Source: an uncultured Bacillales bacterium (GTDB lineage Bacteria; Bacillota_I; Bacilli_A; RFN20; CAG-826). Taken from it: 51,339 bases of DNA. A program made the translations under genes and the position numbers. Where the stretch lies: assembly GCA_947164155.1 (NCBI GenBank), contig CAMUVS010000006.1, positions 1-51,339 of the forward strand, written 5' to 3'. Shown one piece after another: positions 37,003-40,689 of this stretch (positions within the stretch are counted from its first letter, which is position 1; each line of letters opens with the position of its first letter). The notes beneath the pieces were generated by a model. That model saw only the letters and a program-made list of their open reading frames with translations. It had not been told where the DNA came from and made no database searches.

Positions 37003-38009
37003 AAAAAGAATTTGTGATATTAATCCCATCTTATGAACCAGATGAGCAACTAATAAAAGTTGTAGATTCTTTAATTAATGAAGAACTACCTGTTTTAGTG
37101 GTTAATGATGGATCTAGTGAACAATATGATGCAGTCTTTAATCAAATTAAAGATAAGATTCAATATATTAGGTTAGACCATAACCAAGGTAAAGGTGCAG
37201 CCTTAAAAGAAGGATATAGAAATATCCATGCTTTATTTCCCGAGGCCAAATACGTTATAACCGCGGATGGAGACGGACAACATTCCACTAAAGATATTGT
37301 TAAGATGTCTAAGTTATTATTAGAAAAAGATGAATGCGTATTAGGTATAAGACCATTTGATAAATCAGTTCCTTTTAGAAGTAGATTTGGAAATTATTTT
37401 TCTCAAACCACTAGAGGATTAGCAACTAAGACATATCTAAAGGACGATCAATGTGGATTAAGAGGGTTCCCTATTAGATACTTAGAGGAATTATCAAAAA
37501 TTAAGGGAAACAGATATGATTATGAAATTAATCAATTAACTTCATTTCAGTTAAGAGACTATCCAATCATTCCTATGGAAATAGAGTTAATCTATCCTAA
37601 AGATAACAACAAAAAAACTCACTTTAGAAACGTTAAAGATACTTGGAATATCCAGTGTATTATCGCTTTCCAAGGATTACCTTCTTTAATATCTTTATCC
37701 TTATTAATTGCAGGTTTATTAGTTTTATATCATTTTGGATATTCCTTCCATCACTTAATAATCTTCCCTGCTTATCTAATTAGTGCATGCTTAACTTTAT
37801 TAATGTGGACTATATTAGAGCCATCTCAAAAGCCTTTAAATAGAGTATTAAAAGAATTATTATTCACCATAATAAAAATGACATCCGTTTTCGCAATCAT
37901 GTATTTATTTACAGATGCCTTTAAGATGTCATTTTTTATCGCGGTCCCGTTATTAGTGATTTTGGCGTGTTTCTATAACTTGCTATTATCTAGAATTTTC
38001 GTTAATTAA
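36999..38009 (+). CDS. GT2 glycosyltransferase with a C-terminal 4-TM (GtrA-like) domain
   Basis: IPSYEPD, VVNDGS, NQGKGAALK, ADGDGQH and D.QCGLR; hydrophobic C-terminus; ATGA overlap with the nuclease gene. Confidence 0.85.
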   Translation: MKKEFVILIPSYEPDEQLIKVVDSLINEELPVLVVNDGSSEQYDAVFNQIKDKIQYIRLDHNQGKGAALKEGYRNIHALFPEAKYVITADGDGQHSTKDIVKMSKLLLEKDECVLGIRPFDKSVPFRSRFGNYFSQTTRGLATKTYLKDDQCGLRGFPIRYLEELSKIKGNRYDYEINQLTSFQLRDYPIIPMEIELIYPKDNNKKTHFRNVKDTWNIQCIIAFQGLPSLISLSLLIAGLLVLYHFGYSFHHLIIFPAYLISACLTLLMWTILEPSQKPLNRVLKELLFTIIKMTSVFAIMYLFTDAFKMSFFIAVPLLVILACFYNLLLSRIFVN

Positions 38010-38461
38010 TATATTTTTATCCCTTCTACTAAAACATTTTCGACAAATGCAGCACTCCCTACAAGTTGTTCAACCGTTTGAAGATCAACTTCTTTGCCTA
38101 ATGCATTAGTTAATTCATCCGCCATTCCAAAAAATGAAAGACCCATCTTGTGACAAACAACGATGATATCTACATCACTCTCTGGTTTGGCCTCTTTTCT
38201 AGCATAGCTACCATATAAATAAGCGCATCTAACTTCAGGATAGTTTTTAAAAATTTGAGCGCATCTAAATTTGATAAATTGTAGACCAAGAATTCTATTC
38301 TTTTCAGCGTTATCAAGGATCTCTAAAACTTTTCTTCTCATTTCTTCATATTCATCGTTTTCTTCATAATATTGAAAAGAACGTCGAGACACTCCACATA
38401 TTTGAGCAGCCTCAACTTGGGTTAGTCCTAGTTCTTTTCTTTTTTGCTTTAGCTCATTCAT
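38006..38461 (-). CDS. HTH-minimal nucleotidyltransferase (MNT) fusion
   Basis: RKELGLTQVEAA..CGVSRRS...YE followed by YLYGSYAR.EA.PESDVD and L...LGKEVDL. Confidence 0.87.
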   Translation of the reverse strand: MNELKQKRKELGLTQVEAAQICGVSRRSFQYYEENDEYEEMRRKVLEILDNAEKNRILGLQFIKFRCAQIFKNYPEVRCAYLYGSYARKEAKPESDVDIIVVCHKMGLSFFGMADELTNALGKEVDLQTVEQLVGSAAFVENVLVEGIKIY

Positions 38462-39417
38462 AAAATAATATCTCCTATTTTTTCTTTATATAGTTTTAAG
38501 TCCTTGATTTCTAATATTGTTGTTATTCTATTACCACTGTCTTTAGAGGAATGGCCGCAATGATATATTTTTTCGGTATTATACCCTATATCTATAAAGA
38601 TATAACGATCATGAAATCTTCCTTCATTCGGTTTTAGTTTAATTGATATGCCAGTGTCTAATTCAAAATCATTAAGCATAATATCATCAACATGATCTTT
38701 GAATTTGTTATCACTAATAATGGTTATGTCAACATCTTTATTTACAGTTTTTAGCAAGGATAGTGTTTTGATATTGATATAGTCATCTATGATCACTAAT
38801 GAATGTTTAGCGAAAGAATATATTTGCTTATAAGCGATATCTGATTCAATTCTTTCTCCGTTCATAATCAAGAAGTGTTTAAACTTAGATGGATCTATAA
38901 AATTATCCATCACTATTCCTAATTTAGACTCGATATTTTCAAACCTTTTATCGTGCTCTGCAAATCTAGACTCAATATATGTATTAGTGTTTGTTAATAG
39001 ATGTCCGCTTTCTTCAATATAGTCTTTCATGGTTTTGAAGAGCTTGATAAGCGCGATACTTTGTTTAATAGCAAGATCACCTTTTAAAACAGTCATAAGC
39101 ATATAAATGCCTTGTTCAGTAAAAGCATAAGGCAAAGATGTTCGGCCTCCGCTATTTCCAACAGTCCATATTCGCGCGGTCACAATTTGTGACCTCGCCA
39201 AATAATTTGATTCCTCCTTAGTAATTTGAAACATAAAACCATCAGGAAAGCGCTCTATATTACGATTAATTTGCTGGTTGAATGCTTTTGTTGAATATCC
39301 ATAGATTTCCGCTAAATCAAAATCTAACATCACTCTTTGGCCGAGTATTAAATAAATCTTGTCTTTAATATTATTTTCATCAACAATCATAATTTCTTTG
39401 TTTGCTACATTTGACAT
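38458..39417 (-). CDS. ORF6N (KilA-N-like) DNA-binding domain protein with a C-terminal PLD-like domain
   Basis: QRVMLD.DLAEIYG.STK..NQ...RN.ERFP..FMFQ and PYAFTEQG; C-terminal IIDDY and FHDRYIFID..YHCG.S.KD.G; SD gaggtg. Confidence 0.85.
   Translation of the reverse strand: MSNVANKEIMIVDENNIKDKIYLILGQRVMLDFDLAEIYGYSTKAFNQQINRNIERFPDGFMFQITKEESNYLARSQIVTARIWTVGNSGGRTSLPYAFTEQGIYMLMTVLKGDLAIKQSIALIKLFKTMKDYIEESGHLLTNTNTYIESRFAEHDKRFENIESKLGIVMDNFIDPSKFKHFLIMNGERIESDIAYKQIYSFAKHSLVIIDDYINIKTLSLLKTVNKDVDITIISDNKFKDHVDDIMLNDFELDTGISIKLKPNEGRFHDRYIFIDIGYNTEKIYHCGHSSKDSGNRITTILEIKDLKLYKEKIGDIIL
39174..39198. repeat. Palindrome within the ORF6N coding sequence
   Basis: gcg-c-GGTCACAA-t-TTGTGACC-t-cgc: perfect 8-bp arms, 11 of 12 positions paired. 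Confidence 0.95.
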
Positions 39418-39658
39418 ACTGCGCACCTCTTAAAAAACATAAGCGTAAAGATACCATGCTCAGTAAATGCATAAAGAAGTTTTTTAACACCTCCCCAACT
39501 TGATGTGAAATTTTTGCACTTCAAGAACGCACTCCACTCTTTTTCAGTTAATTGAAACATAAATCCAGCATCACTCTTTGGTCGCATATTAAATAAAACT
39601 TGTCTTTAATACTATTTTCATCAACAATTACAATTTCTTTATTCGTTACATTCGACAT
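39418..39658 (-). pseudogene. Degenerate tandem copy of the ORF6N N-terminal domain
   Basis: MSNVTNKEIVIVDENSIKDKFYLICDQRVMLD, then an ~85-nt deletion with frameshift into FMFQLTEKEW..LKCKNFTSSWGG..YAFTEHGI; clearly homologous to the adjacent gene. Confidence 0.9.
39499..39525. repeat. Imperfect palindrome in the ORF6N pseudogene
   Basis: cttga-t-gtg-a-aa-ttt-tt-g-cac-t-tcaag: 10 of 13 positions paired, centred at the same codon position as in the intact gene. Confidence 0.8.
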
Positions 39659-39688
39659 AATACATATCTCTAAATATTAGATATCTAT

Positions 39689-39717
39689 ATTATATATGCG
39701 CATTATTTTTTGCGCAA
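39689..39717 (-). promoter_or_regulatory. Promoter with an overlapping TGCGCA-N8-TGCGCA operator-like site
   Basis: TTGCGC-17 nt-TATAAT; TGCGCA at 39697-39702 and 39711-39716. Confidence 0.7.
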
Positions 39718-39718
39718 A

Positions 39719-39755
39719 CAAAAAGAGCCTTGCTTGTATATAAATTTTAGGCTCT
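39719..39755 (-). terminator. Probable terminator after the sugar kinase
   Basis: agagcct...aggctct stem with an 18-nt loop, followed by a U-rich tract. Confidence 0.55.
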
Positions 39756-39762
39756 AATTTGT

Positions 39763-40689
39763 TTACTTAATAGAAGCTAAGAATTGATCAATTTCTTCTT
39801 CGCTAGGAGCGACATTGATTGCTCCTTTTTTAAGAGTGGCAAGTCCTCCAACTACATTTGCTCTAGTAAGATAATGAATAATTTCTTTATCACAATTAAT
39901 AAATTCAGGGTGATTAACTAAAGACGCTAAGAAATATGAATAAAAAGCATCTCCCGCTCCAGTTGTATCAACTGGTTTAACTTTATAAGTAGGAACTTCT
40001 ACTACATGACCATTATGATAATAAATTGAGCCTTTAGAACCTAATGTTATGACTGCAATTTGATTTTCATTTAATAAAGTTTTTAAACCTTTAACTAAAT
40101 CTTTTTCTTTGGTTAATAATTCAACTTCTTCAATAGAAAACTTTAAAATATCTGCCTCTTTTAATGCTTTAATAAATATTTCCTTAGCCTCGGCTTCACT
40201 GTTAAAGATGTCGTCACGATAATTAATATCAAAAGATATTTTAGCGTTAGTTTCTTTTTTAATTCTCTTTACTAGTTCAAAGAAGAATTCTCTACCTTCT
40301 TTTTCTGATAGCATTAATGAACCGATATGAATAATGTCGTCATCTTTAATATCCTTAAAGTTAATTGAATTAATATCAAAGATATAATCCGCTCCAAAAG
40401 AGCGATCAAATTTAAATGATCTTTCTCCATTATCTAGACTAACAATCGCTTTAGAAGTATATCGGTCAGTTAAAACTTTAATATCTAAATATTTAAAAGG
40501 TTTACCTTTCGCGGTATTTAATAACAAATCTCCATCTTCGTCTTTACCAACAGTGCCAATAAAGCCAACGTCTTTGGTATATAAAAGAGCATTACACGCA
40601 ACATTAAAAGGCGCTCCACCAGGTAAAGTGGTTTTAGACTCACCATCTTTAAAGATGTCCACTAAGATTTCACCAATTGAAATAAGCAT
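39763..40689 (-). CDS. PfkB carbohydrate kinase, probably fructokinase
   Basis: IGEILVD, PGGAPFNVA, SFDINYR and VDTTGAGDAF; adjacent to the GH32 locus. Confidence 0.88.
   Translation of the reverse strand: MLISIGEILVDIFKDGESKTTLPGGAPFNVACNALLYTKDVGFIGTVGKDEDGDLLLNTAKGKPFKYLDIKVLTDRYTSKAIVSLDNGERSFKFDRSFGADYIFDINSINFKDIKDDDIIHIGSLMLSEKEGREFFFELVKRIKKETNAKISFDINYRDDIFNSEAEAKEIFIKALKEADILKFSIEEVELLTKEKDLVKGLKTLLNENQIAVITLGSKGSIYYHNGHVVEVPTYKVKPVDTTGAGDAFYSYFLASLVNHPEFINCDKEIIHYLTRANVVGGLATLKKGAINVAPSEEEIDQFLASIK

Follow-up and report, generated by a model that had tools for sequence, protein, structure and literature searches.

The window analysed here is the whole 51,339-nucleotide stretch of contig CAMUVS010000006.1 (positions 1 to 51,339, forward strand; assembly GCA_947164155.1) from an uncultured Bacillales bacterium. 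On its minus strand lies an intact gene of 319 amino acids (38458..39417) that encodes an N-terminal ORF6N domain, a long helix and a PLD-like C-terminal domain, and upstream of it lies a degenerate second ORF6N module of core type C (39405..39658, minus strand), which consists of two open reading frame (ORF) pieces (39548-39658 and 39405-39587) and has lost internal sequence between QRVMLD and FMFQ. The intact product matches Pfam ORF6N (PF10543) over residues 20-110 with E=5.5e-33 and 113.6 bits (gathering score 27.8). In the degenerate module the pieces matched by the profile hidden Markov model (HMM) cover positions 1-34 and 50-110, and the second of them still exceeds the gathering score (E=5.8e-9, 36.6 bits). 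Each module contains a short DNA palindrome within its coding sequence, and this element is the subject of our analysis.

Palindrome 1 (27 nt, 39173..39199, centre 39186) lies in the expressed module and encodes L-A-R-S-Q-I-V-T-A-R on the minus strand. Its perfect 17-nt core, GGTCACAATTTGTGACC, occupies 39178-39194, and its pairing is 8/8 in the inner arms (an 8+1+8 core), 11/12 over twelve positions and 11/13 over thirteen. Palindrome 2 (27 nt, 39499..39525, centre 39512) lies in the degenerate upstream module, encodes L-K-C-K-N-F-T-S-S and is paired at 10 of 13 positions; an identical copy of its 27-mer is found in the expressed module of a sister locus, L004. Both dyads had been noticed in an original prediction made from the letters of the window alone, and recomputation reproduced their pairing, the position of both centres on base 1 of the aligned I/N codon of the minus strand (in A-R-S-Q-I-V-T-A-R and L-K-C-K-N-F-T-S-S), and all of the compensatory differences described between them: C:G to G:C at pair 5, C:G to A:T at pair 3, and GCG/CGC to TTG/CAA in the outer arms. 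The prediction had also taken the encoded peptide to be a variable specificity segment private to the two copies. Here it was mistaken, as the segment is instead a semi-conserved family motif, [RK][SCW][QKH]xxT[AS], and KCKNFTSSWGG in the degenerate copy is a standard family variant.

One such dyad alone is unremarkable. The window contains about a dozen perfect palindromes with arms of at least 8 bp and loops of at most 5, and the 1.31-Mb genome contains 34 odd-centred dyads with at least 11/12 pairing; the rate of dyads with at least 10/13 pairing is 5.8e-4 per centre (765/1,312,893 centres). It is the comparison of homologues that rules chance out. A scan of the host genome for further copies of the palindrome 1 17-mer, suggested with the prediction, found it only once in the window and once in the 1.31 Mb, its half-sites being patternless; a regulon for this 17-mer was rejected because it is unique. 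No inversion or hypervariation was seen at the palindrome in the covered parts of contigs X8, X5, X6 and X12, which represent 4 of the 21 listed sequencing runs.

The homologous loci were gathered through the protein only, not through DNA symmetry. A family search returned 7964 of 8000 scored candidates at E<=1e-3; the samples comprised genome contigs (80 kept of 591 confirmed) and viral contigs (21 confirmed of 45 pattern-matched stretches), and searches with PF10543 covered 300 genomes of the window's phylum (15 matched), five other genomes, and 251 genomes of the phylum of a Bacteroidales metagenome-assembled genome (77 matched). Every module was placed on the profile HMM, and hence the site to be scored was set by the protein alignment rather than by the symmetry itself. 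This yielded 165 modules with a unique 200-nt context, all from other genomes and viral contigs. At the HMM-aligned centre, 146 of the 165 show at least 9/13 pairing, and within 12 nt of that centre 154 do. Mean pairing is 11.12 at the aligned centre against 3.44 at other centres within ±150 nt, and the aligned site is the strict maximum over this range in 137 modules. A dyad of at least 9/13 within 12 nt is lacking in 11 modules, some of which are misaligned or degenerate. The palindrome occurs in many phyla as well as in viral contigs, and because short ORF6N proteins (160-230 amino acids) with other C-termini also carry it, it belongs to the domain and not to the PLD-fused architecture. The family-wide element is a palindrome of about 27 bp, located at one fixed site of ORF6N, in which a conserved GGTC...GACC core surrounds an A/T-rich centre and the outer arms vary. 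That the DNA stays symmetric as the peptide changes, as the prediction had claimed, is true far beyond the two copies on which the claim was based. We found no description of this palindrome in the openly searchable article texts on ORF6N, KilA-N, antirepressors and PDC-S05.

Could the symmetry be a by-product of chance or of codon usage acting on a conserved peptide motif? The motif alone does fix a few pairs (the T of Ser/Cys with the A of Thr, and the C of Gln with the G of Val), and palindromes of similar strength are, as noted, not rare in the window. However, when the codons of 110 distinct in-frame 27-mers were resampled synonymously from each locus's own usage, the mean fell from 11.41 pairs to 4.92; p was at most 0.001 in 104 of the 27-mers, at most 0.01 in 106, and above 0.05 in none. 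Amino-acid pairs, moreover, covary in a manner that follows base complementarity. The resampling refutes an artefact of this kind, which we regard as practically inconceivable, and gives the outcome that the original prediction had anticipated: symmetry in excess of the synonymous-codon-shuffled expectation, accompanied by covariation.

Examination of the encoded residues shows how far the peptide follows the DNA. Residue pairs track base complementarity: S (TCA) stands opposite V or L (xTG), S (TCG) opposite A or S (xCG), W (TGG) opposite S (TCC), C (TGC) opposite C (TGC), and F (TTC) opposite G (GGA), while in the outer arms L...S is exchanged for S...L. Even the near-invariant R and T are replaced jointly, by I and I (ATA with ATA), as in TTTGATATCAAAATTTTTGATATCAAA. 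Where Thr (codon 6) lies opposite an Arg xGG codon (codon 1), it is encoded by ACC in 79 of 79 cases, whereas the Thr codons of the same loci are ACC in 22% and ACT in 27%. The I/F/N codon (codon 4) ends in T in 94 of 95 cases, and the pair c0.3-c7.2 is Watson-Crick in all 110 27-mers. In five modules (L145, the second domain of L148, L177, L193 and L253) the same GGTC...GACC core is centred on codon position 2 and, in this other frame, encodes a different peptide.

The location of the peptide in the protein is compatible with such freedom. In an AlphaFold2 model of the 319-amino-acid protein, the encoded peptide corresponds to residues 73-82; residues 73-76 end the helix formed by residues 67-76, and residues 77-82 begin a low-confidence loop, with predicted local distance difference test (pLDDT) values below 50 at residues 77-82 and 84-91, between that helix and the strand at 97-99. 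Most of the encoded peptide is thus predicted to sit in a tolerant, poorly ordered loop, a placement that would fit a passenger better than a reading head. Because a loop of this type tolerates sequence, DNA symmetry can dictate the peptide rather than the reverse. We also observed 2-3 in-frame copies of the palindrome-encoded peptide, about 42 nt apart and within the loop, in L144 (1485-1890) and in proteins P0063, P0079 and P0116; the palindrome unit can therefore multiply in tandem within coding sequence.

The composition of the pairs bears on whether the constraint acts on DNA or RNA. Across core pairs 2-10 of the 110 27-mers (990 pairs), 903 are Watson-Crick, 4 are G.T, 23 are A.C and 60 are other combinations. 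Since RNA stems should tolerate G.U, especially in A+T-rich hosts that favour ACT, the near-absence of G.T argues against an RNA hairpin and points to a constraint at the level of DNA.

Palindromes of the same type also occur outside ORF6N modules. The exact pattern GAGGTCNNAANTTNNGACCTC was found in 82 stretches of viral contigs, of which 80 loci (L181-L260) were analysed; all 80 are paired at 9 or more of 13 positions. Grouped by their flanks, they represent 39 contexts: 9 are within ORFs that match the ORF6N HMM and 30 are not, the latter carrying the exact GAGGTC..AA.TT..GACCTC palindrome as orphans. In many of the 30 orphan contexts a stop codon immediately precedes the palindrome, and in some an A-run and a T-run border it. 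Three follow genes that end in what appears, by eye, to be a C-terminal sorting domain of the type IX secretion system (T9SS) type. An arm-swapped control pattern gave 6 stretches with poor pairing, and a GAAGTC variant pattern gave 28 loci, mostly imperfect, with 3 in ORF6N ORFs. Given these controls, the 30 GAGGTC...GACCTC orphan contexts represent a specific class, and the view that orphans are generic terminators was rejected. Five large orphan-bearing viral contigs, with one palindrome copy each, contain no match to PF10543 (0/5).

Among the 251 cellular genomes searched, the exact pattern occurs once each in 10, and in nine of these it is inside an ORF6N ORF; the tenth copy is one of three family palindromes that closely follow the 3' end of an ORF6N gene. 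Tight triplets of this kind, directly 3' of ORF6N genes and with a spacing of about 28-42 nt, are present at 1428-1523 of L272 (equivalent to 1176-1272 of L176) and at 2063-2167 of L168, in two genomes of this search. The 178 protein-found loci contain 113 family-like dyads inside ORF6N envelopes and 25 outside them, the latter in 13 loci. Copies outside are similar to the internal copy at the same locus (median Hamming distance 4 versus 10), with 15/27 in the closest 5%, a count that includes overlapping L109/L123 and near-identical L101/L102 twice. The host genome has one related orphan palindrome, at C25:8270, within an intergenic hairpin cluster: at about 8020-8290 of contig C25 of genome G000 (1220-1490 of L332), between convergent genes and with no ORF6N match, three tandem units of about 55 nt carry a hairpin of the type GTCACGCA-n-TGCGTGAC, alongside the one ORF6N-type palindrome (TTTGAGGTCACATTTTGTGACCACAAA). 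The triplets and the C25 cluster resemble repetitive extragenic palindromic (REP) units and bacterial interspersed mosaic elements (BIMEs) in being short palindromes in tandem intergenic clusters after genes; in contrast to REP/BIME, there is no dispersed high-copy family, only the single exact-pattern copy per genome described above. Free copies could be remnants of modules that have decayed, products of local amplification, terminator-like hairpins or binding sites. Whatever their origin, these non-coding copies remain perfect, which shows that the symmetry persists without coding.

Comparison of close relatives reveals how the palindrome changes. In 71 pairs of modules the 60 nt upstream differ at no more than 6 positions. 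The 27-mers are identical in 42 of these close pairs, and in 12 of the remaining 29 they differ at the centre base alone, A versus T; the 12 pairs involve seven loci, and the events behind them may be few. When pairing extends to the centre, the central base is A in 30 cases, T in 24 and C in 1. In addition, for 22 of 77 distinct 17-nt cores the exact reverse complement is present as a coding variant, giving 11 pairs of inversion isomers, 4 of which are asymmetric beyond the centre base, such as CAA-AAT versus CAT-TTT (Q-N versus H-F). In one example, GGTCGCAAAATGCGACC (S-Q-N-A-T) and GGTCGCATTTTGCGACC (S-H-F-A-T) differ at three bases and two residues and are related by loop inversion. Concerted changes in both arms and spacer-inversion isomers, the footprint of template switching, are both present. 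Fragmentary modules have a mean score of 10.29 (n=14) and intact modules 11.14 (n=140), samples too small to separate selection from self-maintenance.

We therefore favour, at roughly even probability, a reading in which the element is a DNA-level palindrome in a permissive loop, its symmetry is kept by copying from arm to arm, and the peptide is a passenger. The element would be able to form a hairpin or cruciform. During replication or repair, intramolecular template switching would then copy one arm from the other, and in this way a change in a single arm could be converted into a compensated change in both; occasionally the loop would be inverted. The original prediction had offered, as one of two possibilities, a hairpin or template-switch process that diversifies the segment. 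The process fits best, with its Watson-Crick arms and inversion isomers, but its proposed role does not: it would keep the arms identical and flip the loop, and would not be a dedicated diversifier. Published work provides precedents for such behaviour: imperfect inverted repeats are reported to be preferentially corrected by template switching in Proteobacteria (PMC5941160), template switching to create and maintain perfect stems (PMC8794818), and inverted repeats to undergo arm homogenisation and spacer inversion (PMC8604942). All three footprints of quasipalindrome maintenance that these accounts describe, namely arm homogenisation, one-step compensation of several bases and spacer inversion, are seen in the ORF6N palindrome; the accounts concern many unrelated repeats or RNA genes, whereas here one palindrome is followed at one codon over deep divergence, with the mechanism deduced from comparison. 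The closest printed parallels are this maintenance of repeats by template switching and the coding palindromes of Nematomorpha mitochondria (PMC6649704), where perfect inverted repeats likewise lie in functional coding genes and both protein function and a stringent DNA or RNA structure are preserved. The Nematomorpha repeats, however, are up to 284 bp long, have arms that both encode conserved regions, and are a property of certain mitochondrial genomes; the ORF6N element is a single 27-bp palindrome that accompanies one domain family through different phyla and viruses and falls mostly within a tolerant loop.

Several observations weigh against arm copying as a complete explanation. No template-switch event was itself observed, and we infer the mechanism from patterns; because the sequences are related and have spread partly by horizontal transfer, fewer independent events underlie the data than the counts suggest. 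Arm copying by itself gives no reason to expect that loss is rare (the 11 of 165 modules above), that the sequence of the GGTC...GACC core is conserved even in the other reading frame, that viral orphans are in excess (30 contexts versus 5, poorly paired, for the arm-swapped control), or that free copies lie beside ORF6N genes (the 25 outside versus 113 inside HMM envelopes). Amino-acid selection can override arm copying, as shown by the widespread RCKNFT class, whose 13 distinct 27-mers retain a C.T mismatch at pair 4. The near-absence of G.T pairs would also be compatible with a role as RNA if stems are renewed at the DNA level in the manner described in PMC8794818. Together, core conservation, rare loss and the free copies suggest additional selection for a function in cis, and the palindrome could also persist through such a role, either as a binding site or as a break-prone site that promotes exchange of the variable core.

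This last possibility needs to be seen in the context of the array in which the palindromes lie. The variable core of the expressed module (39143..39295, minus strand; about residues 42-92) contains palindrome 1, and its flanks are conserved among cassettes. The window's expressed core, type A, is 94% identical to the silent first module of L004, while the core of the degenerate module is 87% identical to the expressed module of L004, with bases 1931-2002 of L004 absent from it. The syntenic loci L003 and L004 (G255, a genome of the same genus, has the layout of L004) are bordered by the same kinase and nucleotidyltransferase genes and have three tandem modules, the last fused to the constant PLD-like part (1168-2789 in L003, 1156-2774 in L004). 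Module order is C'-A(full) in the window, B'-A-C(full) in L003 and A-B'-C(full) in L004/G255, and the flanks of the array are 92-96.5% identical between the window and the sister loci, with 95-96.5% in the comparison with L004. Core type B occurs on the same C-terminus in close protein relatives, and ORF6N module arrays are also present in L009/G251, G107 and G103. In contigs from other samples, 39143-39295 is exactly replaced by 139 other letters (X8) or 39143-39561 by 164 letters (X6); core replacement and single-module forms both occur among these contigs, which represent other strains and not one population. What had been described as an intact gene with a degenerate duplicate does include a broken second copy, but each of the two is a cassette in a tandem array, and in sister strains another cassette is the expressed one. 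An array of partial modules plus one full gene, with a different module expressed in close relatives (A in the window, C in the sister strains), resembles a silent-cassette system serving the variable portion of a defence protein, as judged from the comparison of strains, from which switching would follow. It shares with hsdS shufflons and pilS/pilE the tandem silent modules with conserved ends, differing cores and a single constant part; unlike in these systems, every module has the same, direct orientation, and the window shows no recombinase gene next to them. Such tandem cassette arrays suggest a route by which specificity could change in a defence gene.

Apart from self-maintenance, the palindrome could owe its conservation to any of several functions. 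As a hairpin in messenger RNA (mRNA), it would act on stability, processing or translation, with the non-coding copies being terminator-like. This accords with the many viral orphans directly 3' of stop codons, some of them (L192, L203 and L248) flanked by A-runs and T-runs like bidirectional terminators, with the RNA-library contig X8 that spans the gene (although the library may contain DNA), and with the possibility that template switching on DNA renews perfect stems that work as RNA (PMC8794818). We nevertheless consider an RNA role improbable: G.T pairs are scarcer than A.C pairs, ACU is found opposite G in 0 of 79 cases even though ACT is the commoner Thr codon in the same loci, and complementarity is kept up to a loop of 1-3 nt, including the near-fixed third base of codon 4. 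Nor do the coding copies resemble intrinsic terminators, in which a G+C-rich hairpin is followed by a T-run; they lack a T-run after the stem and have yTT/AAr flanks that are themselves paired, although some viral orphans, as noted, do have A-run/T-run flanks. A scan of 38300-39800 against Rfam at E<=10 returned no relevant match, just chance-level hits to small nucleolar and small RNAs. A role in recombination, in which second-order selection in a defence gene would maintain the palindrome as a fragile structure that sets off exchange of the variable core, would account for the position of the palindrome within the swapped segment 39143-39295 and for the tandem arrays with differing expressed cassettes in the window, L003, L004/G255, L009/G251, G107 and G103. 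Yet most of the ORF6N genes examined are single modules that carry the palindrome all the same, the core boundaries lie about 30 and 96 nt away from it rather than at it, and neither a break nor a junction coincides with the palindrome in the contigs from other samples; this role seems to us rather remote.

Selection as a binding site deserves more attention, though we still hold it to be unlikely. An ORF6N dimer or another symmetric protein would bind the duplex or hairpin in its own gene, for autoregulation or tethering, much as in the other possibility raised by the original prediction. Beyond symmetry, the core and its A/T centre keep their sequence too, even in the modules of the other frame; the 25 free copies in 13 of 178 loci compare with about 1 expected (own-genome rate of 4 per 1.31 Mb), include the tight triplets just 3' of ORF6N genes, and resemble the palindrome of their own locus. 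PLD nucleases act as dimers, and a protein that is predicted to combine a long helix with a PLD-like domain might suit a symmetric site. On the other hand, all 13 positions of each arm covary over 110 sequences, and a dimer that reads the duplex needs no complementarity at positions it does not contact. Because extra copies occur in only 13 of the 178 loci, any function must rest on the single internal copy; the five orphan-bearing viral contigs lack an ORF6N gene, and in the host genome further copies amount to the one related orphan at C25:8270, the 17-mer itself being unique. Sites inside the gene of their own binding protein are known from ori-lambda in gene O, oriL of SPP1 in gene 38 and parS in spo0J, and there too the gene of a DNA-binding protein contains a cis site, in codons for a linker-like portion. 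In those systems, however, binding is proven and further copies or iterons exist, whereas the ORF6N palindrome is a single hairpin-type site without a second 17-mer copy in its host, and its binding by the encoded protein is hypothetical. A bolder version, to which we attach little probability, makes the hairpin or cruciform the cognate ligand of the ORF6N domain: each gene would carry its own target in the codons of a surface loop, the free copies beside ORF6N genes and the single ones of large phage genomes would be further targets, the PDC-S05 protein, with its ORF6N and PLD-like parts, would act in defence as a restriction-like nuclease that recognises both structure and sequence and rests on its own gene, and a cassette swap would change specificity together with the matching site. 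If true, this would be a new kind of self-referential recognition.

The arm-copying reading has implications of its own. An obligatory DNA palindrome that overrides amino-acid conservation would make ORF6N a clean natural case of a nucleic-acid constraint shaping a protein over deep time. The R-S-Q-x-x-T-S motif of the ORF6N profile would then be in part a DNA signal and not a protein signal, which bears on alignments, on the inference of structure and function, and on candidate ORF6N defence genes such as PDC-S05. Finally, the element offers a system in which self-perpetuation of palindromes by arm-to-arm copying could be tested directly.

The gene that carries the element is a candidate single-gene phage defence gene of the PDC-S05 type, judging by its match to PADLOC model PDLC04869 (E=2.4e-93, residues 5-314 on model positions 5-297 of 306). 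One PDC-S05 representative, for which a RhuM domain is described, is reported to have lowered plating of T7 and T5 about 1000-fold (bioRxiv 10.1101/2024.09.26.614923). The C-terminal domain (38461..38880, minus strand; residues about 180-319) is a confident alpha/beta model in AlphaFold2, with pLDDT 85-93 over most of its length, and Foldseek aligns it with NucT (6ehi_B, E=6.4e-4), Zucchini (4ggk, E=8.7e-4) and Nuc (1byr, E=3.8e-3); the predicted fold thus resembles that of PLD-superfamily nucleases. The catalytic motif of this superfamily is HxK(x)4D. Residues H269, D270, R271, D276, G288, S290, K292 and D293 are invariant in the alignment, so that the motif reads H269-D270-R271...D276, with Arg at the expected Lys position, and is followed by G-x-S-x-K-D with the invariant K292-D293. 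Over its whole length the protein shows a Foldseek likeness to TrmBL2, and the layout of ORF6N domain, long helix and PLD-like part is comparable. A sequence search of the PDB with the family profile gave nothing meaningful (best E=0.059), and a tblastn search with the N-domain against 50,697 cultured-phage records returned 4 unannotated metagenomic records and no annotated phage context.

In the sister family Rha (PF09669), none of 6 true loci has an odd-centred dyad of at least 10/13 at a fixed position, a sample too small to decide whether the element is shared. Even-centred dyads of 11/13 are present in 2 of the 6 loci, one of them at a homologous QRNFALSS motif; this one lies at about 1603-1629 of L281, over F-T-Q-R-N-F-A-L-S-S, and the other five Rha loci have nothing there. 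Within the ORF6N modules themselves there is a second, weaker and A+T-rich dyad of 10/13 (GTATTAAAGACAAGATTTATTTAATAC in L004, at about 1547-1573), which occurs at 39344-39371 and 39586-39613 of the window. It sits in the conserved 5' part of the module, over the IKDKIYLI codons, and could be due to chance in A+T-rich sequence.

Downstream of the 319-amino-acid gene, and overlapping it by 4 nt, is a gene for a helix-turn-helix (HTH) and nucleotidyltransferase protein (38006..38461, minus strand) with matches to Pfam Polbeta (E=2.3e-15), NTP_transf_2 and HTH_3; it resembles PADLOC PDC-S09 (E=8.3e-13) and PDC-M05A. Upstream of the array, the intergenic region at 39659..39762 (minus strand) is predicted to contain the promoter and is 93% identical to the syntenic region of L004. 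An inverted repeat at 39657-39693, unrelated in sequence to the ORF6N palindrome, has 17-nt arms that are 82% complementary and a 3-nt spacer, and is a possible operator.

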